A stretch of DNA of 64,000 nucleotides from Protoeuglena noctilucae (GCA_958009085.1 OY253680.1:806001-870000); one strand, 5' to 3'. Counted from the stretch's first letter, positions 178 to 63,500 are shown. Notes: generated by a model from the letters alone, not told the origin. Program-made: numbers and translations.

Positions 178-2636
178 TCAGAGGGGCAGGGACCCTGTGA
201 TGCCGGGGGGAAGGAAAGAGAGTCCGAGGGTCCAGGCGAGTCCGAGGGCGTTGCTGACGGCCCAGGAGATGTCGTGCTCCGCAAAGGCCACGGCGACGCT
301 CATGACGCTGGCGAGGAGGTGGTGGAGGGCGAGAGGGTCCGCACCACCCGCGGCAGCCACGGCCGCGTTGGCCAAGCCGGACCCGAGGGCCGCGTCGGCC
401 TCGATCACGTCGCAGCAGACGCCGCAGCACGCGTCGGCGACGGACGCCAGGACCCCCCCGGGGCCTCGGGGCGGGCGGGGGACGTCGCATGGTGGGAGCT
501 TGGCGTCCTCGAAGGCCTCGCACTGCACGCGGCAGGTGGCGTCCCGGATGCGCTTGGCCTCGTCAGCCACCATGTACCCCAGGTGGGACTCGAGGGTCTC
601 GTCCAGCAGCGACGCCTCCAGCAGCGGCAGGTACGCCCCCTTCTGGCCCACCGTGGCGGCTAAGGAGCGCTCGAGGGCCAGTACCTGGGAGAGGGAGTCG
701 TGGAAGGACAGGAGTCAGCGGGACAAGTCTTCCTGACGTGCGTGCTGCCCTAGGGAGGGCTATTGCATTGCGTGGGCCTCCCCGCCGCGCCCCTCTTCAC
801 TCGCCTTCTCGGTGGCGGCGACGGTCCGCACCCAGAGCGCCCCGAGCGAGGCGTAGGCGTCGTCCCACACCTCCTGGAGCTGCCTCGCCGTGCTGCCCTG
901 CGCTGCGCTCGAGGCGGCGTGCTTGCGCTGCACGCGGCGGCAGACGGCAAGGAGAGGCCCCCACTGCTGCACGCGGTTGAGCGAGTCCTGGTGGGCGTGG
1001 AAGTGGACGATGACGGGAGAGAGGAGCAGCTCGGGGCGGTCCAGGAAGGTCCCACGGTCTCCGGCGACCACCCCAAAGACGACCTCGGGCATGTGATCGG
1101 CGAAGATCTTGAGGCGCAGATAGGACAGCGCGTTGTACATCTCCTTCATGGCCCGGCGCCAGAGCACCCTTGCCCGGGAGAAGGTCCCGAGGCCGGGCAG
1201 CACCGACACGGCACGGCTGGGCGGGGGGAGATCGACAGGGACGACTACCATTTGCCCGTCGGGCATCTGCTCGTAGGAGACCTGGCATGAGAGCAGGGAG
1301 CTGTCTGCGGGTGGCGGAGTGCATAGGGTCGTGAGAGCCGCAGCGGGGAGGCTGTGATGGGAGCGGCCGGCCACGACGGCAGAGCACGTAAGCTGTGCAA
1401 GGTTGCCAGGGGCCAGCGATGGCAGGCAAGCGATGCGCACCGACGAGTGGAAAGACTTTGGCAAGCATCTTCTCCGCGGCGGGTCCCGGCGCCCCCAGAG
1501 CCGTCATCAGTCCCTCCCAGGTGGGCCCGAGGCCATACTCCGACGTCGTGACGCGCACGTGCAGGTGCAGCTCCTGGCCGCCGGGGCCCTGCACCCACTC
1601 CCCGAAGACCTCGTCGCGCATCATGGCCTGGTAGAACCCTTCGTGGCACTCGTGCGCTTCGGAGACTTTGACCAGGCGGGTCCCCGAGAAGTCGTCGTGC
1701 GTGATGGTGTACCGACGCTGCGGCAGGCCGGCGCTCCCGCTCTCCTGCGGCGGCAAAGAAGCGGATCGTTCTACTTAGCCCGACGTTGTGCTGAATGACA
1801 GGTGCGTTCTTCAGCAGCCCAGGCCAGGGCACCTGGGCGTCGTGCGAGAAGACCACCATCAGGTCGTGGCCGTCCGGGGTGCTCGTCGCCATCGGCGCGC
1901 TGTCCGCGCCGCCGTGCGAGCGAGAGGCGACCACACGCAGATCAGGAAGGGTGCCGAGGAAGCGGCTGGCGTCCTGCGTCGGGCGCGGAGGGAGCAACAC
2001 TCATTCACATGCTGGAAGCGCGCGCCGCCCCGCCATGCGGCGCCGACCGCGCAGACAGCGCTGCGACAGAGAGAATATTGCATACTGTCAGCGGACGGAG
2101 GCGCGCCTCACCTCGAGCGTCAGGTGGTCGTCGGCGAGGGCCTGAAGCGAGGCCGACAGGGCGCCATCGATCTCTCCGACCGAGCGCAGCGCCAGGTGGG
2201 ACGCGCCGTCCAGGACCGTCATGATCCAGCTAGCGACCTCGCGGGAGACGGCGTCAGCTCGCGCGGCACACGGCGCGGGGCCCGAGGGGGCGTCGCATGC
2301 AGGGCTCCCGGTGCCATGAGGCGTGGCGGTCGCGGCGCCGCGTGCGGAAGGCCACAACACGGAATAACGGATGGCGTTGACGTACATGAGCCACGCGGGG
2401 ACCTCGTCGGCGCCCGCGCGGACTGCCGCGGCGCGGCTCGGAGCTGCCGCGCCGAGCTGTAGCTGGCGCCGGCGATTCCGGCGCCGCAGGTGTCGGACCG
2501 CCCGCGCATGCCATGGAATGGACGACGTGACCTCGCAAGGTCGTTGCACTGCCTTTCCGACACCGCCGGGCGACGTCCTCGGAAGGGTCGGCGCTGAGCT
2601 GGCCATCCTGCAAGGTCGAGGGAACATCGCTCCCAT
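178..2636 (-). CDS. Staygreen (SGR)-family Mg-dechelatase-like protein, spliced, with long extensions
   Basis: Joined exons give LPQRRYTITHDD...MRDEVFGEW...LHLHV...LRLKIFADHMPEVVFGVVAGDRGTFLDRPELLLSPVIVHFHAHQDSLNRVQQWGPL, matching the Staygreen motifs (PRxYTLTHxD, RDEVxAEW, FHSxxxxFNRxExWGPL). Stop TGA at 178-180. The start codon is uncertain (2636, 2627 or 2606). Confidence 0.8.
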
Positions 2637-3348
2637 TCGCTCTCGGGGGCGGGGCAATTCAAGCAAAGACCCATTTATCCACTTAAACCGCTAAGAAGCG
2701 ACATATACAGCCGAGGACGGCGCGTAGGAGCAGTCGACGGGACCGTTACAGGTAAAAAAAGGCCCCGCCTCCCCCGCGCACCCAACGTCTCGGCAAAGAC
2801 CGCGTCGAGAGTGTAGGTCACTGAAATTGCGTGGAAGAGGACAATGGGCGGCTGCCCGAGCGAAAAGGGCGGCCTACAAGGCCTGGCATGCGAAAATCGA
2901 AAGCGTGGCGCAGACTGCCAAAGCGTGGAGACGGCCGAGTGTCGTCACCTTGCAATGAAATACTCCACGAGGTCTAGGCGGGGGCCGCGTCGAGCGGAGA
3001 GTCGTTGGGGCGGCAGGCGCTGGGTCACGAGGCCGCCGTGGACTGCTGGTTGACTATAAATGAAGAACGATCGCATCGGAGGTCGCATTAAAGCTTTTAA
3101 ACGCGCTTCTGTGTCGAGCAAGGCATTAACATCCTTCCCTTCGTTCTGAAAAACGAAAAACCCATGCCAGAGCACCACCTGTCAACGCGAAAGCGACTGG
3201 CGGGACAGCCAGCAGTCCATTACGTTTGCCGCAACGAGTCTGGGTGTGGTGCCGCGCGCCCTAGGCCCTGGCGGTCCGCCTCGGCCGCTTTGGCTGACGC
3301 GCTCCACGCTGCTTGGCACGCTGCCCCGTGGACCTCACGTCCCGGCCG

Positions 3349-5577
3349 ATGGAGGAGCACGGGGAGCTGCTGGCGCTCGGCCTGGACCGCATCCAGAGAG
3401 AGCCGGAGCTCTTGAGGGCGGAGGCGGCGCGCCTGAGGTCCCAGATCCAAGTGCGTCGCAGCCGTGATTCTCGCGACCTCGTGCACCACTCAGCCCCATC
3501 GCTGGGCCTTGTACTCAGACATCTGTCAGCCACCTTTGAGCGCTCACTTGGCCCCGCGCACCCCGCAGGAGGCGGCGATACGCAGCTGCGGGGCCTTCGT
3601 GGACGTCGCAGATGCGGCCGAGGCGATGCGCGCGGCCGTCGAGGCCATGGGCCCCGCCACTGAGTCCACCGTGGAGCATCTAGCAGCATTCCAGGATTCG
3701 CTTGGCGAGGACCGCGCCGAGCCAAGTGTGCACATCGCTCCGTCCCCTCTCCCCGCGCGCTCGCGGCACACGGAGCTTTGTCCGACTCCCTCTGCTCGCA
3801 GACTCCCTTGCTCGACTCAGCGACGAGCTGGCAGAGTCCCAGGAGCGCACGCGGGCGTTGTACACCAAGGTGCAGTCCGTGCAGCCCTTGATTGAGATTC
3901 CCTCCCTCCTCGAGGCGTGCATCCGCACGGGATGTTTTGACGAGGCGCTGGACCTTCAGGTGCGTACATTCCTGGCGCTGCGGACCCGGATGCCATCGAG
4001 AGAGCCGCCCGCCTTTGCCACCGTTCACCAAAGACCACCGTGCATCCTCACAGGCCTTCGCCGGGCGTCTGGCCATCATGCACGGCGGGGTGCCGGCTGT
4101 GAGGGCGCTGGAGGCGCAGTGCAATGCCGCGCTGGGGTCCTTCCTGTATCAGATCGTCGGGCAGCTCTCCGGCAGCCTCCACCTGGCCCGATGCCTGCGC
4201 ATGCTGGGGTACCTGAAGCGCGTCACGCCCGCGGTGCAGCGCGCGGAGGCAGCGGGCCACTTGGGCGGGGATGCGGGGGAGCTGGCGAAGAAGCTGAGGG
4301 ACCTTAGGTGCGTGACGGGGCGAAGTGCCGACAGCGCACGATGAGTGCACCCTTCCCTCACCCATCTCCACCCTTTCTCTACCCTTCCCCCCCCTTCCAC
4401 ATCAGGTCCCTTTTCCTCGAGTGCCGCGACCGATGGATCTCCGACCTCCGCCGTGACTTGGACCCCCGCAATGCGTACGAATTCCTGAAGAGGCTCACGG
4501 ACCTGGTGCGACTGCAGCTGTTCGACGTAGCCACCCAGTACCGGGCGCTGTTCCCGGACGACGACGCGGCGCATCTGGGGGCCTTCGTGGCTCGACAAGC
4601 CCAGGCATACCTTGCGTGAGGGGCAGGGCAAAGGGGGCCGAGCGTAGCTGCAATGGCAGATGCCCAGCCAAGCCACCCTTTCACCCTCACTCTTAATGTA
4701 TGCCTATCTGTTCCATCATGTCTGCCACCCCCCCTCACTGCCTCTACTCCCACCCCGCCCTCACTGCCTCTCCTCCCACCCAGCACGCTGAAGGACCACC
4801 TCGGCCTCATCTCTGACGCGGGGAGCCTCGCGAGCCTCCTCGACCACGCCATGTATGCGGGGTCCAGCCTGGCGCGCGTGGGGTGCGACTTCCGGCCCAT
4901 GCTCGAGCCGCTGTTCGAGGGGAGGGCGACCGAGGTGCTGCGGGCGCATGTGGCAGCGGCCGCGGCGGCCTTCGATGCCCTCTTCACCTCGCACAAATGG
5001 GCAGCGGCGTCGGGGGTTGGGGGTGCGGGGTCGGCGGATGCGGGGCCACAGGGCGGGGCTGCAGCGCTGGGGCGGCAGGGCAGTGCGGGGTCACGGGGGG
5101 CGGACGCCACGGTGGCCCCTCCCCAAGACATCCTGGAGTTCCCATTCCTGGCTGCACTGACGAACGGCATCCTGGCGGGTGAGGGCGCAGAAGGTGTATT
5201 ATACTGTGCCGATCGGCACGCATCTTGATATTCGCGATGCTCTGTCTCCGCTTCTCGCTGCCCGTGCAGGTCTGAATGCCCTGCGTCAGCTTCCCGCTCC
5301 CCGCCTGCGGATGCTGGCCCTGGCTGAGGTTGCAGCTGCGCTGCAGAAGGCGGGGATGGCGATTGAGACGGCAGCGGGTGGCAGCGGGGGTGCGGCTGGT
5401 GGCGCCGGGGAAGAGCGGGGCGCGGGGAGGGGTGCGGGGCCAGGGGCGGCGGAGGCGGGCTGTGAGCGTGCGCTGGCGTGTCTGAGGGACAAGGCCGTCC
5501 CTCACATCGCGGCGTGCTACGACGCCCTGTTCCCCGGGACCAGGGACGTGCTGATCGCACGGACGGCAGTAACATGA
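3349..5577 (+). CDS. COG8: Conserved oligomeric Golgi complex subunit 8 (Dor1 family), spliced
   Basis: MEEHGELLALGLDRIQREPELL, LIEIPSLLEACIRTGCFDEALDLQ, RLQLFDVATQYRALF and MYAGSSLARVGCDFRPML are typical COG8 segments. GT-AG introns; TGA at 5575-5577. Confidence 0.88.
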
Positions 5578-7426: not shown

Positions 7427-9971
7427 TCAGCCCTTGAGGGACTTCCACTCGATGTTGTGCTTCTTGAAAAGCCTGATCACCAGCCGGGCCTTCTTCTCGT
7501 CCAGCCTCCACTTGCACCGCTGAGGAACGACGTTTCGGTACAGTCGGGGAACGTGGAGCCGGTATGCCGACTTGCTCGTCACGATCCACGCCTCGAGCGA
7601 TCGCTCCTGGATCAGGACGCGCGCCTCGGATGGCGCTTCCCCGACCTCCACTCGTACAGTGAACCTGCAGGTCAAATAGAGCCACAGGATAGCCTGTCAC
7701 GATCATCGGTCGCGCCATCGCCATGGAATTATGTCGCCAAACACGCGGGGCACGTTGCAGGCGCTCGCTCGCTTGAAGTCGTCGTCGATGGTGGTGTAGC
7801 TCTCGATGGTCTTCCTCGGCAGCTCCGGAGCCAGGTCGCTGACGTCCACACAGGACGCAGGGGCGCGTCGGGGGGGGGCAAACACATCAGTCAGCGGGAG
7901 GGTCTCTGCGGGCTCGGGCACCGCCGCCGGAGCGGCGCAATCCCCGTTCGCAGATCCGTCCGGCGCGACCTGCAGGCAACCGCCCGCTCGCCCCGCATGC
8001 TCCCCCCGGCTGCCGGTGATGGCCCCCACGACCGTTCGTGCTGTGGGTTGGGAGGGGGGTTAACTGGAGCCGCGGCCATAGCTGTGACGGTGCAGAACGT
8101 CTACAGTGCATCGGCACAGCCTTGTCGCTCGCGCTCCATCTGCAGTCTGCTGTTTTCGCATTGCATGCGGCGCTGCGCCCACCTGCCCGCAGAACCACGA
8201 TGGGATTTTCCGACAGGCACCCCTCCACGAGGGACGCGGACCTCCCGAGGAGGAAGACGGGCGACCCCGGCCACCGAAGCGTGCGCCGGTCGAGCACCGG
8301 GAACCCTCCCCACACATGCGTGGGGCAGTCCTCGAGCAGTCCCCGCAGCGGCGCCTCACTCGCCACGTCCACGTGGGTCCCGCACGCCACGACCACCACG
8401 TCACAGCGAATCTCCTGCTAAGAAAGCGTCGATCGGTCGTCACTCTGTCAGCCGCTCAGCACGAGGCTCATGGCCATGCAGCAAGGCCAGGAACTCGCCT
8501 GGGGCGCCTCCTCAGGACTGCCACTGCCCAGGTCCCGCATCCGCGCGTTCCCCACCGCTGACCGCTTGACCCGCAGCACCACCGCCCCGTCGGGGTCGTC
8601 CTCCACCACGGCCTCAGCCACCTCAGCGTTCTCGACCACTGTCACCGCGTCCCACCGCCCTACCGCGGCTGCTGCGCCGGCCCATGCCGCGACCCGCTGC
8701 AGCGCTTGCGCGTCCACGGAACCCCCGGGCCGCCCCTCCCGCAACATCCGGAGCCGCGCGCGGTCGTCAGCGGCGTCCCATGCCGCGCGGTGCTTGGCCC
8801 CGAGCCAGCCGGCCTCGGCATCCAACGGCTGGACTGCCAGGGGTCGGCGGCTCAGCAACGCCACGCGCGTGGCCCCAGCCGCCGCCGCCATGTCCGCCAG
8901 CTGCATCGCCGTCATGCCATTCCCCACCACTGCCACCGCCCGCCCCTCCACGGATGCGCAGTCCAAGGGCGCAGCACCGGGACTGGCGATGACCCGCACG
9001 CGGCTGGGGTGAGAGGAGGTCAAGTCAGCCAGGGCCTTGGGCACGCTGGGTTTGTCACAAGCCCCCGTGTACACCACGTGCTTGCATGCGATGGTGCGGA
9101 GGGCACCATCCGGGAGACGCTGCATAAGCGGGGGCAGCCACGCACAGTCTGGCCAAGAAGCCAAGCTCGTAGCATAGCACCGAGTGCTCAATCCATGATG
9201 CACAGACCTGCGACCTGCGTCCATCGCGCCCGCTCACCACGGTGACCTCGCAGCCGTGCGACATGCCGCCCTCGTCCGCGTCAATGTCGATCGCATCGCC
9301 CTGGATGGGCTCACGAAGACACGCTGGCCAGCCTTGTTGCAGCTCCGATGCGGTGAAGTCCCGGAGGAGCTCCACTGCGTGCAAAGACTGTGCGTGTATG
9401 CAAGTATGGCCCAAGGTGCTGGCAGGGGCTGGCGCCTCACGGCCAAAGGTTCTGACCTGTGGGGCACGGGAGGTGCGATGGGTCCTCTCTCAACTCCGCT
9501 GTGCGGCCCGTGCCTTGTGCGAACTTGGCCAAAGCCTCGGGGTCCCGTGGGTGGAGGCACATGTTCGAGAACCACCGGAGGTGCTTCGTTCCTGCACAGG
9601 AGGAACGCGAGGCACGTCAGTACAGCGATGCACCCCGTTGTGAAGTAAGTCACCCATGACGACGCGCACGGGTGTCACCTCGCACACGGTGAAAATTGCA
9701 CCAGGACTTGAGCCACGAACCGTGCCTGTCCACGACCAGAGTCTTCTCTGCAAGCGTTTTCTGCAGAGGGCGGGAGGTGGAGGGCCTCGGTCGCGGCCGG
9801 GGAAGGTGGCGATGGACCTGCTCCACCACTCAGCGTGCGGCTCACCGGAAGGCTCGCCGCGACTGCCAGTCCGCTGATGCCAGTTCCGATGATGAGAAGA
9901 TCACAGGACATGTCACTCTCGATGGCCTCGTTGCTGCCCTGGGGCGCTGGAGCCGGGCCATCTTGGGTCAT
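7427..9971 (-). CDS. FAD/NAD(P)-binding oxidoreductase (N-hydroxylase-like Rossmann family) with C-terminal CS/p23-like domain, spliced
   Basis: DLLIIGTGISGLA (FAD GxGxxG), AVAVVGNGMTAMQLA (NAD(P) motif), GFPVLDRRTLRWPG. Introns 8041-8182 and 7665-7772 join in frame to FTVRVEV...LHVPRLYRNVVPQRCKWRL...LVIRLFKKHNIEWKSL, which is CS-like. Confidence 0.72.
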
Positions 9972-12871: not shown

Positions 12872-14131
12872 TCAGTCGAAGTCTGAGTCCTCGTCGGACC
12901 CCTCCTGCGGCGCCTGGCCCCCCCGCCGCACGTTCCTGGCAGCCTCGGGTGCGGGCGGCTGGTATTCGTCACCCTGCTCGTACTTGACGATGCCGTCCCG
13001 CGCCAGCCGAGCCGCCAGCAACGCCGTGGGGAAATCTTCGCCCCCAAACTCGTCCAGGCCCACGATGTAGTTGAGGATCTTCTCACTCTGCAAGAAAGGG
13101 GGCGACTCTGTCTCAGAAGGGCGACTGTCTCAGTGAGCCCTCCTGCAGAGCTCCAAGGGTCATTGGCGAGGTAAGAGCCAAAGACGTGAGGATATTGCAA
13201 GTGCCCGGCGCCACGGCGCCTGCCACCAGCCCCCCCTCGTGGGTCCTCGCCTTGATGAGCGCCACCGTCGGCAGCATCCAGATTTTGAGCTTCTCTGCCA
13301 AAAAGGGCGCCTTTTCCGCGTGGATCTTGATGAACTTGGTTTCCAAGTGCTTCTTCGAAAGGAGCTCCAAGTGCTTGTCCATCACCTGCGGGAGAGGAGC
13401 GGACGCGAGCGAGCGACTCACAAAACGACGCGTGCAGGACTGTGCGCTTGCAAGTTGAGATATCCCGCATGGCTGCGAGATTCGTTATCTATGCCCGCTC
13501 GCCTTGCAAGGCCACGACTCGCGGTAAAAGTGACAAACGGCCCGCTCCTCCTGCTTGATCTCGGCGAAGAAGTCCTTCTCGCTCGCGATCTCCGTGTATT
13601 CCCCGTGGCCGCGGGCGCGCCAGTCCTGAGCACTGTGAGGGAGCGAAGGGGAAGGGGAGCAACGCGTCAGAGCGCGGTTGCGACGCGCACAACGGGGACG
13701 CCAGCTGACGCCGGGCGCCGCGGACGCCGCAGGGGCATCGCAGGCGGTCCGATGGTAGCGGACGCAGAGAAATCGGCATACGAAGGCAAACGCAGTACCG
13801 CGGTGCCTGACGAAGCCGTCGCTCGCTGCCCCGGGCCCAGCATGCCTACAGAATTAGCGCGGACGCCCCCTGCCCCCGTCGGGGCACGGCGGATTGCCAT
13901 GACCACGCCGCCGCAGTCTCGAGTCGCGACACGCATCGTCCGCAATGCCCATTCCCGCCCTCACGCGCGAGCGTCCCGCTGGAGCTGCTCGAGCCGTTTG
14001 CGCCGCAGCTCCTCCAGATCGTCGTCCGTGAGCTTCTCGAGGTTCGCTAGCTCCGCGTCCAGTCGCTGTTCCACCTCCACCGCCGCCCGCAGAACCTGGG
14101 ACTCGATGGCCTGCTGAACGACCGCTTCCAT
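12872..14131 (-). CDS. PLP3: Phosducin-like protein 3 / thioredoxin domain-containing protein 9 homologue
   Basis: DLEELRRKRLEQLQ, GHGEYTEIASEKDFF, VCHFYRESWPCK|VMDKHLELLSKKHLETKFIKIHAEKAPFL, YIVGLDEFGGEDF and an acidic tail DEDSDFD. Confidence 0.9.
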
Positions 14132-16545: not shown

Positions 16546-16594
16546 TCACCGGTGTCTCGCCAACCCTGACCCCGCCCCTCCCACCCAAGCTGAA

Positions 16595-22487: not shown

Positions 22488-31231
<8,744 letters not shown>

Positions 31232-47535: not shown

Positions 47536-48454
47536 GGCCCACACGTGATATTCAGCGACGTAAGATCGCGCCAATCGCCCTTGATTGGGTCTCCAGCCTC
47601 GCGGCGCGCTCTCTCCACCCCGCTGCAGAGGTAGGGGCCATGGAAGGGAGTGGGAGGCGCAGCAGGGGGTGCTCCGATGGCAGCAAAGGAGCACGTGAGC
47701 TCTAAGAATCACATGCATTCACTGCGACCTTGCGCGTGTGCAAGACCCGGGGTCGGCTTGGTGATGTCACCCGTCTGTCCCGCCATGCCGTCGCAGGAGT
47801 GAGACATTCGCGGCCTGCCATCAACATCTCTATCATACGCCAGCAGCGAGGGATGGGAGCGTGGCGTGCGATGGCCGGGGACGCGCATTCCGGGCCCAGC
47901 AGCCCCCGCGGGTGTGGCAGCCTCAGTTGCGCCTGGGGAGCCCCTCCTGCCTCCGCGTTCACCGGCCTCCGGTCTTTGCTCGCCTGAATGACCCCCCTGG
48001 TACCCTCGCCGCACCCCCTCCCGCAGCCGGCGTGCCAGGGAGGGAGCTGGACCGCAACCACCGCTCTCGACGCGCTCGAACGCGCCCTGAACGGCGGAAG
48101 ATGATCTCCGGTCTCCCCCAGCGACTGGTATGTGCATGTCTAGCGCTCACGCGCATGGAACGCGCGACCCGCCGCAGGGGACGAGGCGAGTGCAGTGTCA
48201 GAGCGACTGACGCAGCGGGCCCGGCGACGCGAGCTGCGGGGTGCGATGCCGCCCACCACTAGTTTACTATCCTCTTCGGTGTGCGCATGCGCTGACAGAA
48301 CCGTACGGCCAGGGAGAACAGGGGTTTGCTAGGGCGTCCATCCTCGAGGCCCGACGCGTCGGCTTTGCCGTGTCCAGTGGCTGCGAGTGGCGACAGTCGC
48401 TCAGGGAGACCGCGGTTCTGCCCTGTCGGGCGCGGGGGGCGGTGAAGGAGCACC

Positions 48455-51131: not shown

Positions 51132-51349
51132 ACATGAGAGGGTGTTAGTGAGCGTGGCGGAACTGAGACATTGGTTGCCTTCGCTTTGCAACACAGCCCT
51201 TTGCGCTCGCTTGGGCTCGGCATGCACGGTGCAGCGAGTGTATATGAAACACTAAATACCATTCTTTCTCGTCACGCTTCAAGCACGTTTGGAACCTTGC
51301 ACCAAACGGCCCTCAGCCCAGCGACATCCCAGCCAGCCTCGCAGCTTCA

Positions 51350-53593
51350 TCAAAAGAGCGGCACTGTGTCCCTGGCCATGCCCAGCAGCCTCTCAAACAC
51401 CCTCTGCCCGTCGTCGCGGATGCCCCCGTGCATGAGCTCCGACGTCACCCACACGCGCAGCCCCTGGATGCCAGCCCCGGTCCGCTTGGCCAGGTCGAAG
51501 TCGACGTACATGTCATCGAAGTACGCCGTGGCGGCACATGGCACCTTGTTAGCAGCCAGCGCTGTGGGGTCGTAGAGAACAGGCCAGGAGGGCTGCTGGG
51601 CAATGGCCTCTGCCACATCAGCGATGGGGCGCAACGCCGCGACGTCCTGGAAGGTCGAGGGGAAGACCATCTCGCCCGTGAAGAGAACGGGGCGGTCGTC
51701 AGATGACTGCGAGGGGGACGAGGTGTCCCGAGGGAGGATGAGTTGGATGCCACAGCGGTCCAAGGCGGTCACAGGTTCTTCATCCGCCTTGTCACCTTGG
51801 CCGCCGCCACTGCGTCAAAGTCGGTCCTGTTGGGCTCCTCGTCCCTCACGCGCTGTGCCGCCCACGCGAGGGCACCGGGGCCGGAGGCATAGCATGCTTC
51901 GTGGAGGAGGGCGTAAAGGCAGTTGGAATCGAAAGGAATCGAAGCGTCGACGGCCTTGAGGAAGTCGATGGAGAGGATGCCGGGGGATTCAAAGGCGCCC
52001 TGGGTGGCGAGGGGAAGGGGCCGGGGTGAGCGATGTCCAGGGTGGGTCGAGAGTGTGTAAGGCCCTGCTTACGTGCACCAGTCTGTGATCACCAAAGGCT
52101 TACCTCGAACAAGAAGTAAAGCTTCTCGAAACCCCCCACGCTGCCCAGCCCGCCCAGTCCCAGACCCTGCGTGCGAACGAGGCATCGCCACATCTTCGCA
52201 TCGGCAAGGCAGCTGTTCTCAATTGTTGCTTGTTCCTCTCGCTTTCACGCCGGCGGTATAACCACCATACAGTATGCGCCCCCTCACACCACCCTACAGG
52301 TCTCTGCACCCCCAACACACCGTCATCCACTCGCCTGCAAGAGCGTCGGTGTCAGGCGGTTCCCAGCCGGCGTCTCCACGGCGCCCCCCGCTGCCTCAAT
52401 CGCCCGCACCACCTCCCTGACTACGCCCTTCAGCTCCGGGAATCGCCGGTACAGCTTTTCGTTCTGCGCCCGCACCCGTGTGAAGAGAGCACGATACGCA
52501 GTCTCTGCCACAGGGCCCGGCTCGAGGCTGGGGGGCAGGCCGCCCGTAATGAGCACTTCCCTGCGGGAGGGGGAGAGGGGCAGTGCATGAGCTCGGTGCT
52601 GTAGTACTACTCTCTGTTGCTCAGAGTCGCAGTGTCTTCAGCTCAGTGGCCGAGGCGGGTGGTGCAGCGGTGATGCACTGGCGCAATGGTGCAGTGGCCC
52701 AAGTGAGCAGTGGCGCTTGCCTGAGCGAGTCGGGGCATCGCGAGAGGTAGAGCACCGCGCAAAAACCCCCAAAGGACTGGCCGAGGAGGGTCCCCTGCGT
52801 CGCACCCAGAGCTTTCCGGATCGCCTCGCAGTCGCGGACGATGCTGTCGGCGCGGAAGTGCCCCAGATGCGCGGCCTTGTCGGCAGCGCTGCCTGGGAGG
52901 CGCGCTACCACACCCGGGGTGATCTTGCTGGACAGGCCCGTGCCCCGCTGGTCTAAGAGCAGGACGCGGAACGAGGAAAGCGCAGCCTTGGCCCACGCGG
53001 CCGGTTCCGTGAACCTGAAAAGGGGCAAAGCACGGAGCGCGTCGCTCAGGACGTGCTGCGGCACCAAAGCACGTCCGGCGGACCCGCGGAGCTCAGGTCA
53101 CCTGGGGCACTCGAACCCTGGACCTCCCTGGAGATACACCAGGTAAGGGAGGTCGGGGGCGGCTGCTCCCGAGGACTGGTACAGCTCACGAACGAAGACG
53201 TCCACCGTGCCCTTCGCTGGGTCTGCATGTTGGAGCAAGGCGTTGCAGCGACGTGAAGGTGATTGCTTGAAAGCCGCAGATTGCTCATGCATCCGTGACG
53301 AGGGCACCTTCGTAGTCGATTGGGACGGTGAACGTGTGGTTGCGCATCGAGAAACCCTTCATCTTGTGCTCCCCGCCGACGCGATGGCTGCCGGGGACTA
53401 TGGCTGGCACGACGGCATCGGCCGCCCTGGCCTCGACGCGCGCCCGCTTCACCCCGGGCGGCATCGTGCGTGTTTGGGCGATGGACCGAGGGATGGGACT
53501 CCGCACGAGCGGTGCCGGTGCAGCTGCCGGGAATGTACGAGCGGTGCCGATGAGACCTTTGACTGCTGCGCGTGCGAGGCAAGCTGCCCGCAT
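51350..53593 (-). CDS. PIP: Proline iminopeptidase (peptidase S33 alpha/beta hydrolase)
   Basis: YLQGGPGFECPR, LLDQRGTGLS, HFRADSIVRDCEAIR, nucleophile LGQSFGGFC, YFDDMYVD, ELMHGGIR. Confidence 0.92.
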
Positions 53594-53879
53594 CTGCGGG
53601 GAATGGGGACGCGGAGCCTGGCCACCGCAGCTCTGGGGCAATCGTGCGCTATGGCACAGCCACGCAGCGATCGCCAATGCTTTGTACACACGTGCTCCCG
53701 TCCGCAGCTTTGTAGCGCCGGTGGAGCGTCTGTAAGACGTTCACGTTCGTGCGCGTTTCCAGCACGCGTCGATGCCAGCCAGCGGCTCTGACGGATGGAT
53801 GAGCTTGATTTTATTAATAACGGGTCATATTTCGGCGATTGTTCCACATATGACTGCGCGGATGGCACCTACGTGCCCC

Positions 53880-56800
53880 ATGGCGGCATCTCGGGGGCTC
53901 CTGTCGCTACGCCGTTGCTGGGTGGCCCACTTCGAGGGAAATGATGGGTTTTAGCCATTCCTAGTTACAGACGAGACAGGAATGATGGACGCAGACGAGA
54001 TAGATACGTGTTTGGACCTCCCGCTGCCCCATCAGGCACGTCGAGAGGGTGCTGCTCGCCACCTGCCCGCGCCCTCCCTTCCCCGCTCGCCGCCGAGCAT
54101 CTAGATGTTCCCGATGCCTGCGAGAATAATTCGTCTACCTCGTCGACGTGTCCGCAGTGGCCTTCGCCCGCTGGGATCGAGGCGCGGGGGTGCCTCGTCA
54201 CGGCCGCTGCCCTGCGCGTCCCCGATCACACGGGGAGCACGCCGCTGTGGCGTCACCGCATAGGTAGACTCGTGAAGGATGCGGTGCGGCGCGGAGAGGA
54301 CTCGCCGTTCGCGGCCCCGGGCCTCCATCGCCGGTCCCGGCGCACACGGGAGGCTCTCTATGCCACGCACCTCCCGTGGGACCCGCACCACGTCTCTGCC
54401 GCCCCGGGGATCGAAGCCATGCGCGTGCACCACGTCGCGGACGACGAGGAGGCCTCCGCCATGGCCTCGGCGGGTCTCCCCACGGCACTGGGCGGGCGGG
54501 CGACGCGCGTTGATGTGGCGGGGGAGCCGCGCTCGAGCTCCGATGAGGAGTCCGGGCCCGGTTTCGGCAGCGGAGGGTTTCTGTTCGGCAGGGACGGCGC
54601 CCGGAGGCGCATGGCGGCGGCACGCGAGGAGGAGAGCGAGGTGGGGACGCGCGTCGGTGCCGAGCGTGCGCGTCTGTGCATGTGCAAGACACATACACGT
54701 GAACCATCATCGACCATGCAGTGCGGTCAGTGGCAGGTAATAGGCTTGCCATCGCTGTCCCTGTCGCAGGCTCTACGGGCGACGCTCCATCTGTTCCAAG
54801 CGGTGGATGAGGTGGTGGCGTTGCTCCATGCGCTGGCTGCTGCCAACCCACGCGCGCTGGGGCGGGTAGCGGGGAGCTTGCATCTCGGCAACCGGATGCG
54901 GGGCGCAGAGATGAGCGGGGGTGGGGCCGCACAGGGGCAGACTGGAGCAGGTCCTCGAGAGATGGGGGATGGGGTGGAGAAGGGTCGGGGTGTGTCATCG
55001 GCAAAACGCAAGAGGGGAGGAGTGCCGGAGAATGTGGGGTTAGAGCATGAAGCACGTGGGGTGTTGCAAGAGAGGGTGCGAGATAGGGAGGAGACGGGCA
55101 TTGACGTGCGGAGCGGTGGGGATGCTGGGGTGGTGGGCGTCAACGCAAGCGGTGCGGATGGGATGGGCGAGGGGGCGGCGGATGCTAATGCTGGGGCAGG
55201 CAAAGGGCGAGCGCTGCTGCTGCGTCGATTGGGCGAGCGGAGAGGGAAGCAGGGGGCAGCAGCGGGGGTGGCGGGAGATTCCAAGCGAGGTGCTGCGACG
55301 CTGCGGGCGGGGGCAGATGTCGCGGATGCAACCAAAGGCGCGGGGGTGGCAACCGAGGGGCCAGGGGTTCAGGGCTCAGCTGGGGACGGTCGTTGGCACC
55401 AGGCGGTGGATGTGGGGAGCGGGCACATGTATTACTACAACGAGCGACTGGGGATCACTCAGTGGGAGGAGCCCGCGGGGGCGCAGGTGGTGCCCTTGGC
55501 TGAGGGGTGGCGGCGGTGGCTGGCCGAACGGTGGGCGTGGGGCTCGCTGGAGGTGCCAAAGCATGGCGGGGGTGAGAATGGTGACGGGGAGGCGCAGGCG
55601 GCGAGGTTGCCGCGTCCAGAGACGTCCGGGCTGCTTTGTGGGGAGCACGCCAGGGGCAGCGGGGTGCACGTGCGGTTCGGGAGCGACGGCGAGAGTGATG
55701 AGGGAGAGAATGTGAGAAGGGCAATGAAGCGGACCGGCGTGGCACAGGTTGCGCATGACGAGGTGACTGATCGATGTCTGCGTGCCGTGCCGCGCAGGGC
55801 AACGTGGATGCCACGGCGTCTTGGGCTGAGGACATGGTGCGTGCCCTGCAGGACCGATGGGTGCCCAACGCGGGAGAACTGCCGCCCATGGGGTGAGGAC
55901 CTTGCTTACCAATTCCCCTTTCATTGCTATGCTACTTGTAAGTCTGTCTTATGTGCATTCCAACCCCCTTGCTGCTCTGCCCTTGTCCAGTCGCGCTGCC
56001 AAGCATCGCGTGGTCCGGCTGGCCAAGCGCGCGTGGCGCCTGCTGACCAGGGCAGGCCTCGCCCAGGGGCACTGCGATGGGGATGTTCACCTCGACCCTT
56101 CGTCTCAAGGAGACGAAGACACGGGGCTGTCAGCAGAGGGTGGTGGCGAAGCGGCCATTGGGGAGGCCGACGGGAGCAGCGACGGCGAAGGCAGCGGGCG
56201 AGGCGGCAGCGGCCGGGACGCAGTGGTGGCCGTGGCTTCGCTGGCGGGTGCCGCCTTGGCTCTGGCCGACCACCTCCCTGCTGCCGCATGCCACGTGGCG
56301 CCTCTCTTGGCATGGCTCCGTGACGCCGCTTCCCAGGCCGACGAAAGCGGCAGCGGGGCTGACGCGTGCGCGCCGCGCGCCCCTCCCGTCGCCGGGCCGC
56401 TTGTTTGCCAGTGCGTGCGCCATTGGTCGCATCTGGATTGGGTGACACCTGTCCGCGAGTGCATTCCCAGTCATCTGGGCAAGTACTTCTTCCAGAGATA
56501 CCGATACTTCTCGCTGTACGACCTTGGGTGCGCCGTGGACGAGGAGGGGTGGTTCTCCGTCACCCCCGAGGTGACCACCACGGGGGATTAAGAGCGAGTC
56601 TCACAACGGTCGATCTCTTAGCCTTGGGCAGCGCATTCCTCATCGTGTCCCCTTCCATCCGCAGGCGGTGGCGCAGCAGCAGGCTCTCCGGTGTGCTGGC
56701 GCCGCCACCGTCGTCGACGCCTTTTGCGGGGTCGGGGGCAACACGGTGCACCTGGCCCGCCGGTGAGAGTGACACGGCCTCATGCCCGCCGCTAGCAGTA

Positions 56801-57529
56801 TGTCGATGTCCTCTGTGTTTCTGTCTTACCATCTCTCCATCTCCACCCTGATCTTTCCTCTGCCAGCGCAGGTGCGGCGAGGTGGTGGCCGTCGACCTGA
56901 ACGCCTCGCGCCTGGCCCTCGCCCGCCACAACGCAGCGCTCTACGGCGTCGAGGACCGCGTCCGATTCTGCCACGGAGACTTTCTCGAGCTCGCCAAGAC
57001 CTCGCTCGCGGCGGGTGAGCGCCAGTGCCGCAGCTGGCGTGGTGGGTGTCGCTACGAGCACGGCACGTCTCGACAGCAAGCGCCTCTACGCCGCCGCAGA
57101 CGTCGTGTTCCTGTCCCCGCCCTGGGGCGGCCCAGAATACGTCAAGTCGGAGGTGTTTGGCGTGGCGAAGGACATTGGAGGCCTCGGCGTCGGCCTCGCG
57201 GGGCTGCTGGCGCTGGCCCTGTGGGTGGTCGACCGCGGGGGCCCGCGCGCCGCGCCGCGCATGTGGGGCGTGGCTGTGTTTCTCCCGCGCAACGCCAGCC
57301 TGGTGGAGATCGCCGACGAGGTCGGGGCGCTCCGGCGGCAGGGGCTGCTCGCGGAGGACCGGCACGAGGTCGAGGAGTGCTGGGTGAGCGCAGCGACGGC
57401 GGGAAATGTCCCGACCGACCTGGAAGAAGCCAGGCAGCCACCCGTCCACCCCCACATTGACCGCAGGTGAACGGCAAGCTCGTGGCGGTCACGGTCTATG
57501 TGGGGCGCATCGCAGCCGCCCAGGGCTGA
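53880..57529 (+). CDS. TGS1: Trimethylguanosine synthase (RNA cap hypermethylase) with WW domain
   Basis: WW domain WHQAVDVGSGHMYYYNERLGITQWEEP; KYFFQRYRYFSLYD...DEEGWFSVTPE; VDAFCGVGGN; DVVFLSPPWGGPEY; FLPRN. The start is uncertain (about 53880-53982). Confidence 0.88.
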
Positions 57530-57728
57530 GTCGGGCGGCGCGGCGTGGCTGCTGGCGATTCACTCTCTGCCCTGCGCACGCGCCACAGCTCGGACCTTGC
57601 AATCGCGACCTGCCAGTGAAATTGGTGTGCCAGAGCAGCTGTGGCCAGCGAAGGAGGGCCGGTGGCGCATCCGCCCCGCAGTCCCTGGCGCGTTCGGCAG
57701 TTCCCCGGTGTGTGGCTCGATTGTGAAG

Positions 57729-59892
57729 ATGGCTCTCTCCGCCAAGACGTTCCTTGGCGCGGCCGTGGCCGCGAAGGCCAACGGGCCCGTCGCCCAGCGC
57801 CAGGCCGTGGTCGTGAGGGCCGGCAAGTACGATGAGGAGCTTATGCAGACCACGGTGAGCGGCGCGCCCGCCCGTGCGCCCGCGCGCGTCGCCCAGATCG
57901 CCCCGGGCTCGACGGGGGGCCCCCGAGCGCCATCCTGCCCGCGGGCCCCGCCCGCGCGCCGCCCGGGAACGCGCATTTCAGTGGGCGTTCTTTTGGAGCC
58001 TCCGGTGCCCCGCCATACCCGCCCGCGGGCGTGGCGAGGGTGGATGAAGCATTGTCCGGGCCCCACGCCTGCGGATCCCCCGGGGGGGCTGCCGCCGCAG
58101 CAGACCGCGTTTTCCTCGTTCCGGAGAATCGCTTGCCGGCTCGCTCCGGCGCGGCCGTGGCCCCGGGCGACCACGATGGCCGCGGCGAGGGGGCGACCGC
58201 GAGCCCGCCACCCCGGTCGGCGCCCGCCACGGCCCCGGGGTAGGCACCGTCCGTTGCCTCTCTTTCCTGCCCCTCTTTCGTCCGGGCATTGCGATCTCCC
58301 CGGCAGCCCCCGGGACTCGCCGACCCTGGTCGCCGTTTTGGTGGCAGCCCTGCGGCACGCTCGCCCCGCGCCCGCCGCGCCTGGGGGAGCCGTGCGCCAG
58401 CTGCATTTCGTTTGCTATGTGTCGGCCGCGCCGCCGGTTTGGGTCGCGGGTGCTCAGGCGGCGCGCTGCCGGCTCGGGAGTGCGACCGGGAGCATCTGGG
58501 CCGACGTCGCCCGCCGGGGCCGCGCCGACCCCCGATCTCACTCGTAGCAGTCGCTCAAGCGCCGCCGCCGCCTCCCACGCGCGCAGAAGAAGATCGCCAC
58601 GCCCGGCCGTGGCATCCTCGCCATGGACGAGTCCAACGCCACCTGCGGCAAGCGCCTCGACTCTATCGGCGTGGCCAACACGGAGGACAACCGCCGTGCG
58701 TACCGCGAGCTGCTCGTGAGCGCCCCCGGCCTCGGCAACTACATCTCCGGCGCCATCCTCTTCAAGGAGACCCTGTACCAGAAGACGGCCGCCGGCAAGC
58801 GCATGGTCGACGTGCTCAACGAGCAGGTGAGGCGGCGCAGTTTGATCGTTTCGACCCATCGCGCCGCGCATCGGGCCCCGCGGCCGCCGCTCGACGCCGG
58901 CTATGGGGGGCCTGACCTTGCCTGCTCTTCCATCCTGGCCGCAGGGCATCGTCCCCGGCATCAAGGTCGACAAGGGCCTTGCCCCGATGGCCAACGCCAA
59001 CGAGGGCGAGACCTGGTGCCAGGGCCTGGACGGCCTGGCGGGCGAGTGCGCTGAGTACTACAAGACCGGTGCCCGCTTCTGCAAGTGGCGGACGACCGTG
59101 AACATCGCCGCGGGCGCCTCCAACAAGGCCGTGTTCGACGCCGCCTACGGCCTCGCCCGCTACGCCGCGATCGCCCAGAACGCCGGCCTGGCCCCCATCA
59201 TCGAGCCCGAGATCCTCCTCGACGGCGACCACGACATCGACACGTGCCTCGAGGTGGCCGAGCGCGTGTGGGCCGAGACCTTCAAGCAGATGGCCGACCA
59301 GGGCGTCCTCTTCGAGGGCATCCTCCTCAAGCCCTCCATGGTGACGCCCGGCGCCGACAAGAACCGCGCCAACCCCGAGACGGTCGCGGCCTACACCCTC
59401 AAGCTCCTCCGCCGCCGCGTGCCCCCCGCGGTCCCCGGCATCATGTTCCTCTCCGGCGGCCAGGTGAGAGCCACGGGCCGGCAGTGTTTGTTGGTTGGTC
59501 ACATGGATGATTGCAGCCCCACCTCCCATACCAGCCCTTCTCTTACACCCCCGGCATGATGTCTCCGCCCGCCGCTGCTCTGCTCTACGCATAACCCCCG
59601 ACTCCCTTCCACCCGCCCACCGCAGTCTGAGCTCGAGTCGACGCTCAACCTGAACGCCATGAACCAGTCGCCCAACCCCTGGCACGTGTCCTTCTCGTAC
59701 GCGCGTGCGCTCCAGAACACGTGCCTCAAGACGTGGCAGGGCCGCCCCGAGAACGTGGAGAAGGCCCAGAAGGCGCTCCTCAAGCGCGCCATGGCCAACT
59801 CCATGGCCCAGCTGGGCAAGTACGACCCCAAGATGGAGGGCGAGGACTCGTCCGCCGCCGAGGGCATGTTCCAGAAGAACTACTCGTACTGA
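57729..59892 (+). CDS. FBA: Plastid class I fructose-1,6-bisphosphate aldolase
   Basis: Transit peptide ending [68 protein letters not shown]-terminal Tyr. Confidence 0.97.
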
Positions 59893-60572
59893 GCGGCTCG
59901 CACTGAGCCATGCCGGCCGGGCGCGGCTGGCGGGGGCGGTGGGGTGGGGCGGCCGGGGGTGGCCGGGGTGGCTGCGGCGGGGCGGGGCAGCGAGCGATAG
60001 GCTCGCGCCGCACCCCGCGCGGCACGGGGGATCGTGGGGCGCGGCTAGTGTGCTGTGGCTCGCGTAGGGTGGGGTAGGCAGGGGTGTGTGGCGCGCGATG
60101 TGGGTGCGTTCGCGCGTGCGGCGTGCTTACATCGCGGGGCTGGGCGTGTTTGAACTGCACAAGTGTCCATGAGATCTGGTCACGGCTGTCAACTACCTGG
60201 TTGCGTCCATGCGACCATGCCGTGTCTCCTATCAGCGAGGCGTCGTGTGTCGTGTGGCAACTTCACATTCAAGGCACTGATGTTGAGAGGAAAGCTCTGC
60301 AGGCGGCAGAGCGCCGGGAACGGAGAGGCGGAAAGGGGCCGCGGGTCGGGGAGTGGGCCCCACCCTGGGAGGAAGGGCCATGACGGTGTGACCCTGGGCA
60401 ATCACGCGAGCTAGGTTGGTGGTTAGGGAAGAGGCGCGGAGTCTACGCGCGCAGGGGTGGCGCTCGCGCCTAGAGAGTGGCGCGGACACGCGTCCTGCTG
60501 CTGGGGAAAGGCATGGTGACAGGGTTGGCGAGGTCGAAACGCGGGAGCCTGGCAGCGTCTCTGGCGGCGCCG

Positions 60573-63500
60573 TCAGTTGGCGACCCACACGGCCCAGTCC
60601 TTCCCCGCCGCTGCCTTCTGGAACTTGTTCCTGTCAGGGTGCCAGTTGCCCGGCCCGATCTTCATGGCCACGCGCCCGTCCACGATGGCCGCGTAGCAGC
60701 TGTGGTTGGCCTCAGCTATCTCGAGAGAGGAGCGGCAGTGGATGTGGTTGTCGCGGCGGATCTGGGGGGAAGGGAGGGAGGTACAGGCGATGTGGGCGAC
60801 AGAGACGAATGGGTCGGGCTGATGTGGTGGGGGCAAGTGAGGCAGCACTGCCCGCCCCCGCATTGGTCCTTGCCATGCCCCAGCACTGCTCAACCCCCGC
60901 ATTGGTCCTTGCCTTGAGCAGCTGCTCGATGGCCTCGCGGCACTGCATGTGGAGGTGGTCGTAGAAGACGCAGGGGGTGCTCGGGTGAGTCAAAATGTAG
61001 CAGTAGCCCTGCTCAACGCCATTGTCAGGGAAGCGCCAGTGGCCCTGGCTGCTGCCTGCGGGCGGGCGAGGGGTGAGTGGGAGGGGGTTTGGATGGGCCA
61101 AGGGTTGCAGCGAGGGCGGGGTGGGGGCGTTCTAGTAACCACAGTAGATATGGAATGGCCCATCGTTCACCACACCCAAATCGTAACCACACCCACTACC
61201 CCCAATACCACCACACCACCACTCCCCATCCCCCTCACCCGTGTCGTGGTTCTCGAGGAAGGTGACGGCGCGCGAGGGCCACCACCCCAGTAACCCCGGG
61301 GCCCTCCCCTGCCCGTCCCGGAGGCGCCAGTACTCCCCCCGCTCGAACACGGCGTGCAGGATGCCCTTGGTGGTCATGTCGAACGCCGCGCTGAGGGACG
61401 CGGTGGCGTCGATCCAGTTCACGATGCGCTGGCGGTGGCCGTCCTGGTTGTGCTGCGGCACGGGGCCCTCGTAGGCCAGCGCGTCCCAGTACTCGCCCAC
61501 CGTGAAGTACGGCTTGCTGGCCTCGATGTAGGTCTTGACGAAGCGGCCGTCGATGCCGCGCACGAAGTCGAGGCGGAAGCCGTCGAATCCCACGGCTGTG
61601 CGCAGCCACACGAACCAGTCGCTCAGGTCGCGCTGGACGAAGTCCTGGGGGCAGAGGGGTGGGGTTGGGGTGTGGTGAGATGGGTGAGGGAGGTGGGGCG
61701 AGACAGGTGGGTGGGTTGGGTGAGACGGGTGGGGTGGGCGAGCGCAGCGAGGGCGGCTCGCTTGGCATGTGCTCCACACCCACGCAGTACAGGATGACTG
61801 CCCCGCACTCATCACAGCTGCTCGCCTGGGAGTGGTCGATGTTGGGCGCCCCCGACCATATCTGCTGGTTCTTGTGCCGCCCACGCCCGCGGTAGCTGGG
61901 GTCGTTGCCCACGATGGCCCGCTGGTCCCACGCCAACTTGCCCTGGGGTGAAGGGGAGTGGGGGGAGACATGTGAGGGGGGGGTAGACATGAAGGGGTGC
62001 ACGTGTGAGGTGTTTTGTTCTGAAGACGTATGGGGAAGGTGGTGATGGCGACGCAAGGATGGGTGGCATTGGTACCGACACTGCCACCCCACTCGCTGCC
62101 CACCCATCCACCCCGTCCCTCCTTCCACCCCCCACTCTGCCCATCTCATAATACCCCTCACCCCGAACTTGTTCCACACTCCGTTCTCGTCCTGGAAGTG
62201 GGCGCACCGGTGGTTGATCACCGCATCCCCGATGGCCTTGATGCCATGGTCGTGCATCGTCCTGTAAGAGAGGGAGATGGGGATGTGTGGTGAGATGCTG
62301 AGATGGGGATTTGGTGAGTCGCGGAATGGTACGGTATGGCTAGGGTAGCTGCTGTGGCACAGAGGGCACTGAGAGGGTACCCAGAGGGCAGCGGCGCAGC
62401 GAACATGTGGATATGGGACGCCCCACCACCCCCGCTCATGCACACTCCCACACTCGCACCACCCCTGCTCATGATCAGTAACACCACCCCTCTGCACTAC
62501 TCCACTCACTCGATGAGTTCCTTCAGCTCCTCCATCGACCCGTACTTGCTGTTGAGGTCGTACAGGTCACGGGGCATGTACCCCTCGGGGGACACCGAGT
62601 CCGTGAAGGGGGGGAGCCACATGAGGGAGAAACCCAGGCGCTGGAGCTCGGGGACCTGGGGGACGAGAGGTGAGGGGTGGGGGTGAGGCACGGGTGAGGG
62701 TTGCATGTGTGGTGAGGGTGACAGTGGGGAGGGTGGGTGACGGCGGAGGCGGAACACGTTTTTTACAGTAAAAAAGCACAGGGCGGGGATCCATGCAAGC
62801 ACCGCACACCCATCACTCGCACCACCCGCGCCCTGTTATCTACCTCCCCCACCCCCGTCCCGCACCCCCCGCCCCGCCCCTCGCCTGCGCGGCCAGCTTG
62901 CGGTAGTGTCCCTTCTTCCAGCTCTCCCAGTTGAACCCCTGCAGCATGATCTCGCGGCCGTTGCCCGTGGCAGGGTGAACGTCGGAGGCCACCTCGGGCA
63001 CCACGCTGAAGGGGGCTGCCTCGCGGCCCAGGGCGGGGTCATCCAGGGCGGAGCGGCCCGCGATGCCGCCGGGGAGCCACGTGGGGGGCTTGGGGAGGCA
63101 CAGGGGGCTACTGCGGGGGTGGGAGGGGTGGGGTGGGGTGGTTCAGGTGACGAGGTGCCTGGCTGGGTGAGGAGGTGCTAAGGGAGGTGGGCACGTGAAA
63201 AGGGTGTGTGAAGAGAAGGCAAAGGGACAGCGGAGGTGCTGGGAACAGTGCCATGGTCGGCGACACGCTCGCACCCCGCCCGCACCTCCACCCCGGCCCC
63301 GACACTGCATCGAACCCCACCGGCATCTCCACCCCTATTTGGCAGCCCCTCCTCACCCCTTGAGCAGCTCGAGGTTGTCGACGACCTTCTCGGCCCGGGC
63401 CCCCCGCTCCTCCAGGGCCGCCATCGTCGCCTCGGCCTCCTCCATCTGACGTAAGAACCCCTGAATGTCAGACTCTGCGTCCTCCACGCGCTGCGCCGTG

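Follow-up and report, generated by a model that had tools for sequence, protein, structure and literature searches.

Introns that begin with GC and end with AG are abundant in a window of the Protoeuglena noctilucae genome (OY253680.1:806001–870000). The window is the whole 64-kb stretch of DNA that was analyzed, and all results below refer to it. Twenty of 120 curated introns (16.7%; Clopper-Pearson 95% confidence interval 10.5–24.6%) are GC-AG, and GT donors make up 83%. These GC-AG introns are real, and their share in the window is far above the usual 1%. They are most probably ordinary U2-type introns in which GC pressure has let the T at position +2 of the intron drift to C, a change tolerated at otherwise-consensus donors, with no changed small nuclear RNA (snRNA) and no mobile family. 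On this account, +2 T would have been replaced by C in about one intron in six of an intron-rich, GC-rich marine green alga. The replacement would be tolerated only where every other donor position fits (A/C)AG/G-C-(G/A)-A-G, and the remaining pairing to standard U1, and later to U5 and U6, would offset the single +2 mismatch. The likeliest driver would be the GC-biased substitution pressure of the genome, acting where +2 C is nearly neutral. An earlier inspection of the DNA alone (the sequence-only reading) had listed 17 of these introns and estimated their share at over 10%, an estimate borne out by the 20 of 120 counted here. The 20 introns are given below with donor (last three exonic bases in lower case, slash at the exon-intron boundary), gene, and basis; "model" denotes our gene finder.

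685–804, minus strand: GC-AG intron, aag/GCGAGT, phase 0; Staygreen-domain gene; model, codon statistics
7665–7772, minus strand: GC-AG intron, caa/GCGAGC (exonic AA, not AG), phase 2; Pyr_redox/CS-domain gene; model, two stops
8415–8498, minus strand: predicted GC-AG intron absent from the sequence-only reading, cag/GCGAGT; model only
13088–13250, minus strand: GC-AG intron, aag/GCGAGG; TXNDC9-homologue gene; homologue colinearity after ...ALIK
13386–13502, minus strand: GC-AG intron, aag/GCGAGC; TXNDC9-homologue gene, old intron position; homologue colinearity
20659–20863, plus strand: GC-AG intron, aag/GCGAGC; two-fasciclin-domain gene; model, stop and frameshift inside
21191–21389, plus strand: GC-AG intron, cag/GCGAGA; fasciclin gene; model
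24546–24746, minus strand: probable GC-AG intron, aag/GCAAGA; WD40 and coiled-coil gene; model, non-coding interval
28520–28638, minus strand: GC-AG intron, cag/GCGAGA; WD40 and coiled-coil gene; model, length of 119 shifts the frame
30752–31000, plus strand: GC-AG intron, aag/GCGAGT; nuclear psaD; PsaD profile continuity
33121–33293, plus strand: GC-AG intron, cag/GCAAGT; Vps51/COG1-like gene; model, stop and frameshift inside
43165–43256, minus strand: predicted GC-AG intron absent from the sequence-only reading, cag/GCGAGC; Rad9 gene; model only
44985–45104, plus strand: GC-AG intron, cag/GCGAGT; protein-kinase gene; Pkinase profile continuity
48867–48953, plus strand: GC-AG intron, aag/GCGAGC; DRG-type GTPase gene; RNA joint skipping 87 nt
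49932–50059, plus strand: GC-AG intron, aag/GCGAGT; DRG-type GTPase gene; RNA joint and MMR_HSR1_Xtn profile
52167–52334, minus strand: GC-AG intron, cag/GCGAGT; gene like Arabidopsis AT3g61540 (alpha/beta hydrolase); PDB colinearity
52561–52720, minus strand: GC-AG intron, cag/GCAAGC, phase 2; AT3g61540-like hydrolase gene; PDB colinearity
60762–60912, minus strand: GC-AG intron, aag/GCAAGG; alpha-amylase gene; RNA joint and intronless orthologues
61645–61825, minus strand: GC-AG intron, cag/GCGAGC; alpha-amylase gene; RNA joint and intronless orthologues
62656–62884, minus strand: GC-AG intron absent from the sequence-only reading, cag/GCGAGG; alpha-amylase gene; model and orthologue colinearity

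The frequency was tested against a known background rate of 1.2%. Under that rate the probability is 3.6e-17 for 20 of 120 introns, 2.6e-7 for the verified introns alone (11/120), and 2.5e-5 for the RNA joints listed (4/15). The GC-AG introns are spread over 12 of the 21 model rows, or 12 of about 23 genes. The motif AGGCRAG was counted 40 times, a number reached by none of 100 dinucleotide shuffles (25.4 ± 5.3), and AGGTRAG occurs 32 times, against 10.8 ± 3.5. Because 19 of the 40 AGGCRAG occurrences are curated donors, the remainder is at about chance level. With 120 introns in about 23 genes, the window is far more intron-dense than Micromonas pusilla.

The window has 66.7% GC over its whole length. 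Its gene content is green-algal, with nuclear psaD, Staygreen, PLATZ, and class I aldolase identified by Pfam profiles among 135 exon translations. In a protein search, named matches to an aldolase exon were 75–79% identical and spread across core chlorophytes and ulvophytes. RNA data came from four marine metatranscriptome runs (X1–X4) of a single study, which contain a fraction of about 0.3 of the words from one 10-kb part of the window. RNA contigs were placed on 42401–62400, and 15 of the 43 joints were listed. Genes were predicted using our own Viterbi gene finder, which combines codon log-odds with donor and acceptor matrices and admits T or C at +2 under an adjustable prior. It was trained on open reading frames (ORFs) with high GC at third codon positions (GC3) and on the 15 RNA joints, and then re-estimated on its own output. 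A first version with weak penalties grossly over-predicted exons and was discarded, and the final version uses stronger penalties. Donor scores were taken from our own matrix with positions +1 and +2 excluded.

At a GC prior of 0.05 or 0.01, the gene finder returned 21 gene models with 125 introns, 22 of them GC-AG before curation. A prior of 0.2 gave 23 of 125 (uncurated). A prior of 0.001 gave 17 of 124 and lost 61645–61825, which is proven by RNA. When GC donors were forbidden, 123 introns were returned and the coding score fell (2520 vs 2576). The final model contains all 17 introns of the sequence-only reading and all 15 listed RNA joints, the joints being part of signal training. Five model introns were dropped before counting as false joins of adjacent genes (35434–37011, 38102–38407 [GC], 38464–38893 [GC], 43661–43792, and 43815–44541), leaving the curated set of 120. 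An additional GC interval, 57505–57700, was predicted at a prior of 0.2 alone, bridges two genes, and was not counted. The 21 model rows correspond to about 23 genes, one row being a fusion of three. In that row, plus-strand genes for a Vps51/COG1-like protein, a Rab-type GTPase, and a PLATZ protein were merged via false long introns at 35434–37011 and 38102–38893, and an SSXT-domain gene lies on the minus strand (35590–36196) inside the first of these.

Independent support was found for 10 of the 17 introns first proposed, none was refuted, and one of the three added introns (62656–62884) was supported as well. RNA contigs account for four of the 10; continuous Pfam profiles, colinear homologues, and colinearity with a solved Arabidopsis protein account for two each. 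All 17 intervals read GC(G/A)AG...AG where the sequence-only reading had placed them. The AG/GC(G/A)AG form that it described holds with exonic AG in 16 of 17, the exception being 7665–7772, and the intron that it left open-ended from 33121 closes at 33293 in the gene model. RNA joints match to the base at 48867–48953, 49932–50059, 60762–60912, and 61645–61825, with positions taken after the cut shifts permitted by the tool. Each of these four joints is present in X2, X3, and X4, and X1 has no listed joint. The remaining 11 of the 15 listed joints are GT...AG. At the four covered sites the contigs, which can drop rare forms, carry the GC-spliced form alone, and the splicing at nearby GT donors that had been considered as the alternative was not seen there.

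Protein profiles run through the junctions without gaps. PsaD profile positions 21–59 end exactly at the donor of 30752–31000 and positions 60–134 start exactly at its acceptor. The Pkinase profile breaks exactly at 44985–45104 (57–106, then 107–167), and the MMR_HSR1_Xtn profile passes from 64 to 65 at 49932–50059. GT control junctions were equally gapless (aldolase 87/88 and 261/262, Ras 32/33, PsaD 20/21, Dor1 129/130, and Pkinase 56/57).

The 45-residue exon between the two TXNDC9-homologue introns was searched against 1.84 billion representatives, and the best 150 of 695 matches (E ≤ 0.001) were used. Most matches listed stay colinear past the exon. Thirty-four full-length homologues were compared with the spliced model, and most rows have no indel at ...WPCK/VMDKH... 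or ...ALIK/SEK.... Named clusters among the matches are land plants. A search for longer proteins with the last exon of the gene gave no match. For the hydrolase gene, three consecutive exons match residues 69–164, 166–240, and 242–261 of PDB chain 8jgn_A (Arabidopsis AT3g61540). Chain residue 164, a split codon for 165, and residue 166 meet at 52561–52720. At 52167–52334 the upstream exon ends at residue 240, and residues 2–21 of the 21-residue next exon match 242–261, which puts residue 1 at 241. The third match is weak (E 0.25) yet top-ranked and in register. X2 contig 10 has 908 nt between anchors 53308 and 51706, the exon sum (121 + 294 + 226 + 63 + 204).

A metagenome scan with an amylase exon returned 32 loci. 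The spliced amylase model is gapless against uninterrupted orthologues at 61645–61825 and 60762–60912, and NIDHSQ/DFV is colinear in loci L001 and L003. At 62656–62884 the spliced model is colinear with the intronless L003 over residues 257/258. The aldolase exon matches a 100%-identical spliced protein in a marine catalogue, which confirms two GT introns.

The other seven of the 17 (685–804, 7665–7772, 20659–20863, 21191–21389, 24546–24746, 28520–28638, and 33121–33293) have our own model, non-coding statistics, and donor consensus as their basis. Mean codon scores of these intervals are at most 0.02, against 0.04–0.55 in flanking exons. Every interval also contains in-frame stops, shifts the frame by its length, or is low in GC3. 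Intron 685–804 appears in the model at all GC priors down to 0.001, holds two in-frame stops, and has a donor score of 6.5 vs 0.9 for the best GT alternative. At 7665–7772 a weak CS match (E 0.021) starts at profile position 14 on residue 3 of the next exon. The GC donor of 20659–20863 scores 6.0 vs −6.0 for the GT alternative, and the sole protein match to the fasciclin exon is the read-through ORF of this genome itself. At 21191–21389 the Fasciclin profile (13–63) begins at residue 2 of the next exon, and the rival GT donor lying 9 nt downstream has a score of −2.2. Interval 24546–24746 is clearly non-coding (codon score −0.69, GC3 0.45), and its in-frame GT rival 6 nt upstream, gcg/GTGAAG, scores 0.6 vs 4.1 for the GC donor; this intron, the weakest of the 17, was lost from the model at a GC prior of 0.001. 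Both exons adjoining 28520–28638 have WD40 matches by Pfam; the WD40 exons have many PDB matches, but chain coordinates at this junction are ambiguous because of the repeats. The GC donor of 33121–33293 scores 4.4 vs −2.1. Loose-threshold Pfam and NCBIfam searches added almost nothing at the seven junctions, and the Rad9 exons had no usable match in PDB. A protein search in the Atlas identified no more than the family.

GC donors have stricter flanks than GT donors. AG at −2/−1 is present in 19/20 GC and 52/100 GT donors (p = 0.0003), RAG at +3 to +5 in 20/20 and 59/100 (p = 0.0001), and A or C at −3 in 20/20 and 64/100 (p = 0.0008). The perfect form AG/GYRAG is found in 19/20 GC and 22/100 GT donors (p = 6.7e-10), in line with the proposal of the sequence-only reading that the flanks compensate for +2 C. 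Phase 0 is also more frequent (17/20 vs 55/100; p = 0.013). GC thus accounts for 19 of 41 perfect donors (46%) and for 1 of 79 imperfect donors, and C/(C+T) in intron interiors is 0.61. At perfect donors, +2 C therefore appears near its neutral share, and elsewhere it is almost excluded. The same reading had suggested relaxed or altered 5′ splice-site recognition, for example through U1/U6 variants; this was not supported, the GC donors being the strictest donors in the window and not relaxed ones. Strict GC-donor flanks are a prediction of ordinary U1/U5/U6 pairing. None of the 120 introns begins with the U12-type donor RTATCC. GC-AG and GT-AG introns do not differ in acceptor base −3, pyrimidine content, or length. 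All-against-all blastn of 125 introns (word size 9) returned model overlaps and three or four chance matches of 20–47 nt; the introns have no sequence in common and are therefore not introners within the window. An Rfam scan of the 64-kb window for snRNA genes gave 0 matches at gathering score.

Relatives with the same gene neighborhood were compared at L001:2038–4530, L002:469–2961, and L003:2116–5523, against window positions 57729–64000. In L001 and L002 the aldolase lies beside the amylase, convergent as in the window, and in L003 a cap-methyltransferase gene and a TXNDC9 fragment lie beside the amylase. These loci are 72–76% GC. Their amylase and aldolase genes are single uninterrupted frames, vs 8 and 3 introns in the window; introns were either lost in the relatives or kept or gained in this lineage. 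The relatives are not intron-free: at the codon of 13088–13250, L003 likewise has a ...CCGCAG acceptor. After ...ALIK at that intron, apparent intron-reading ORFs start with Val (GTN) in catalogue proteins P0002, P0081, P0118, and P0133, and the window's own ORF, P0001, starts with Ala (GCG). P0002, which is 89% identical, has a tail that agrees with the beginning of L003. At 13386–13502, P0043 has an in-frame insert of 56 residues at ...WPCK/VMDKH..., with V as its first and Q as its last residue, which is read as a putative retained GT...CAG intron. In many short ORFs of the catalogue, ..LQ is the ending just ahead of the VMDKH exon (13251–13631, minus strand), and this position seems, from the ORFs, to be common to other species. 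At least one GC-AG intron thus seems to occupy a position shared with taxa that appear to have GT. The GT-to-GC turnover between orthologues that the sequence-only reading had suggested looking for seems to be present at one TXNDC9 intron, where four other taxa appear to have GT. A shared position with GT elsewhere would fit T-to-C drift in this lineage.

Abundant GC-AG introns in GC-rich algae were already published in 2011, and no new kind of splicing is seen here. The passages on GC-AG introns in Iwata and Gotoh (BMC Genomics 12:45, PMC3033335) give 1.3% overall, 22.2% in Micromonas pusilla (genome 65.9% GC), 39.6% in Aureococcus anophagefferens at 69.5% GC, 7.7% in Chlorella sp., and 2.7% in Micromonas RCC299 at 64% GC. 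High GC-AG shares are connected there with high G+C, and their origin is termed an enigma. For Aureococcus, M. pusilla, and RCC299, the putative U1 RNAs are described as having a 5′ arm identical to the consensus and are judged an unlikely explanation of the differences, and base modifications or U1 snRNP proteins are suggested instead. Per-species fractions are in Additional file 1 of that paper, which may cover more algae. Pucker and Brockington (2018; PMC6310983) report 1.2% over 121 plant species. Feldmesser et al. (2014; PMC4028052) report 56% GC-AG among 241 manually mapped junctions of Emiliania huxleyi, and a 2024 review (PMC11282704) describes dinoflagellate introner-derived introns that are GC-AG. 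The usual rate of about 1% given by the sequence-only reading thus stands; its naming of haptophytes and dinoflagellates for elevated rates was incomplete, as the GC-AG passages of PMC3033335 also cover GC-rich green algae. The Prasinoderma genome paper held no splice-site passage.

By these figures the window resembles M. pusilla and Chlorella sp., green algae with GC near 66–67% and a GC-AG share an order of magnitude above 1.3%, with 16.7% in their range; compared with both, its introns have no repeat families. The window also has the GC content of about 65% or higher that marks GC-AG-rich genomes (66.7% in 64 kb). Aureococcus is likewise a GC-rich marine alga with abundant GC-AG introns, but this very GC-rich picoalga is a pelagophyte with a higher share, and the window has the green-lineage genes psaD, PLATZ, Staygreen, and class I aldolase. 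E. huxleyi, as described in PMC4028052, is also a GC-rich marine alga in which AG is kept at the acceptor and junctions are mis-called by predictors limited to GT; unlike the window, where GT is 83%, this haptophyte has GC as its majority donor. Ordinary plant and animal GC-AG introns share the U2 type, the AG acceptor, and flanks nearer consensus than those of GT introns, but at the reported 1.2–1.3% (PMC6310983, PMC3033335) they are about 14 times less frequent. Dinoflagellate introner introns, as reviewed, share the high GC-AG share, but those of the window have no shared sequence, and at least two are at positions apparently common to other taxa.

Other explanations were weighed. Several of the seven model-based introns might use nearby GT donors, which would bring the true share nearer 9% than 17%. 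The seven have neither RNA nor homologue support, and an in-frame GT lies 6–108 nt away in every case, at 6 nt for 24546–24746. We nevertheless consider this quite unlikely, because all 11 checked cases used the GC donor and the GT alternative was wrong, the alternatives score −6.3 to +0.9 vs 3.5–6.5 for the GC donors, and the verified cases alone (11/120) are still far above 1%. GC donors kept as weak sites for intron retention or alternative donor use would fit the lower use of plant GC-AG than GT-AG sites stated in PMC6310983, as well as the closeness of in-frame GT alternatives. Against this, the genes are a plain housekeeping mix (psaD, DRG GTPase, amylase, kinase), the flanks are maximal and not weak, and the RNA contigs at four sites carry only the GC-spliced form, although rare forms may drop out; such regulation is very improbable here. 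A recently inserted introner-type mobile element with a GC donor, as in some dinoflagellates, would agree with syntenic relatives that have no amylase and aldolase introns, and introner-derived introns in dinoflagellates are described as mostly bordered by GC-AG (PMC11282704). The 125 introns, however, have no mutual similarity by blastn, and at least one GC-AG intron is at a seemingly shared position, with one common to a relative apparently with GT, so that this origin is scarcely credible.

An altered spliceosome, in which a variant U1 5′ arm, U6 ACAGAGA box, snRNA modification, or U1/U5 protein accepts +2 C, would explain why perfect donors are GC in 19/41, close to neutral. It also agrees with the few percent reported for green algae of similar GC (2.7% at 64% GC) and with the base modifications or U1 snRNP proteins suggested by Iwata and Gotoh, both in the GC-AG passages of PMC3033335. 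That GC donors require the strictest flanks speaks for standard pairing, and the same passages describe a consensus 5′ arm and judge U1 an unlikely cause in Aureococcus, M. pusilla, and RCC299; we think an altered spliceosome unlikely. A recent lineage-specific change in the reading of +2, through a protein or snRNA modification rather than U1 sequence, is likewise unlikely; it would fit a +2 C share of 46% at perfect donors against a neutral expectation of 61%, and relatives that seem to keep GT at the one shared intron and to have lost most of the remaining introns compared. If it were true, the determinant behind Iwata and Gotoh's enigma could be mapped naturally by pairing this alga with its syntenic relatives.

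Several points weigh against T-to-C drift under GC pressure at otherwise-consensus donors. GC content alone is insufficient, because RCC299 has 2.7% at 64% GC, and a lineage-specific tolerance is likely. The compensation statistics are drawn mostly from our own gene model, and the flank contrast is partly built in because the model calls GC donors only with good flanks and would miss weak ones. In the model-free RNA set, perfect donors are 4/4 GC vs 5/11 GT among listed joints, a small contrast. The evidence base is 64 kb, with 15 of 43 RNA joints listed. The turnover evidence is one intron, read from protein ORFs and not from DNA.

Gene prediction is directly affected. The sequence-only reading had expected ab initio predictors to mis-model these genes, and a GT-only run of our gene finder lost all 22 uncurated GC donors: 21 introns moved to another donor, and one (48867–48953) was retained. 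The replacement donors are in frame, 6–108 nt away, and score −7.7 to +0.9; in the 11 verified introns the GT-only result is demonstrably wrong. With predictors that use only or favor GT, roughly a sixth of the splice junctions in this genome would be displaced or missed, and more than half of the multi-exon genes would be corrupted (one or more GC-AG introns are present in 12 of about 23). ORFs of this genome that read on past an exon into a GC-AG intron are already present in public protein catalogues, namely P0276 (20353–20802, plus strand) and P0001 (13088–13385, minus strand). Both are the product of prokaryote-style gene calling on eukaryotic DNA. With this window, an intron-dense green alga joins the few GC-rich genomes in which GC donors are abundant. 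That these donors approach the neutral share where the site is perfect and are almost absent otherwise bears on the unexplained gap between species of similar GC.

Other features of the window were noted. X1 contigs end in poly(A) at 51261 on the plus strand and in poly(T) at 51265, so that the ends of the two convergent transcripts, from the GTPase and the hydrolase gene, appear to lie no more than about 4 nt apart. Another poly(A) end, at 60169, is consistent with the aldolase 3′ end. Hundreds of X1 contigs at 90–95% identity cover 49071–50404 at a depth of 832–3670 without listed joints; this pile-up is probably conserved DRG GTPase transcripts of other organisms, not of this alga. GC skew is strongly negative (−0.17 to −0.20) at 16001–28000, a region that coincides with two long minus-strand genes encoding F-box/ankyrin and WD40/coiled-coil proteins, whose coding strand would be G-rich.

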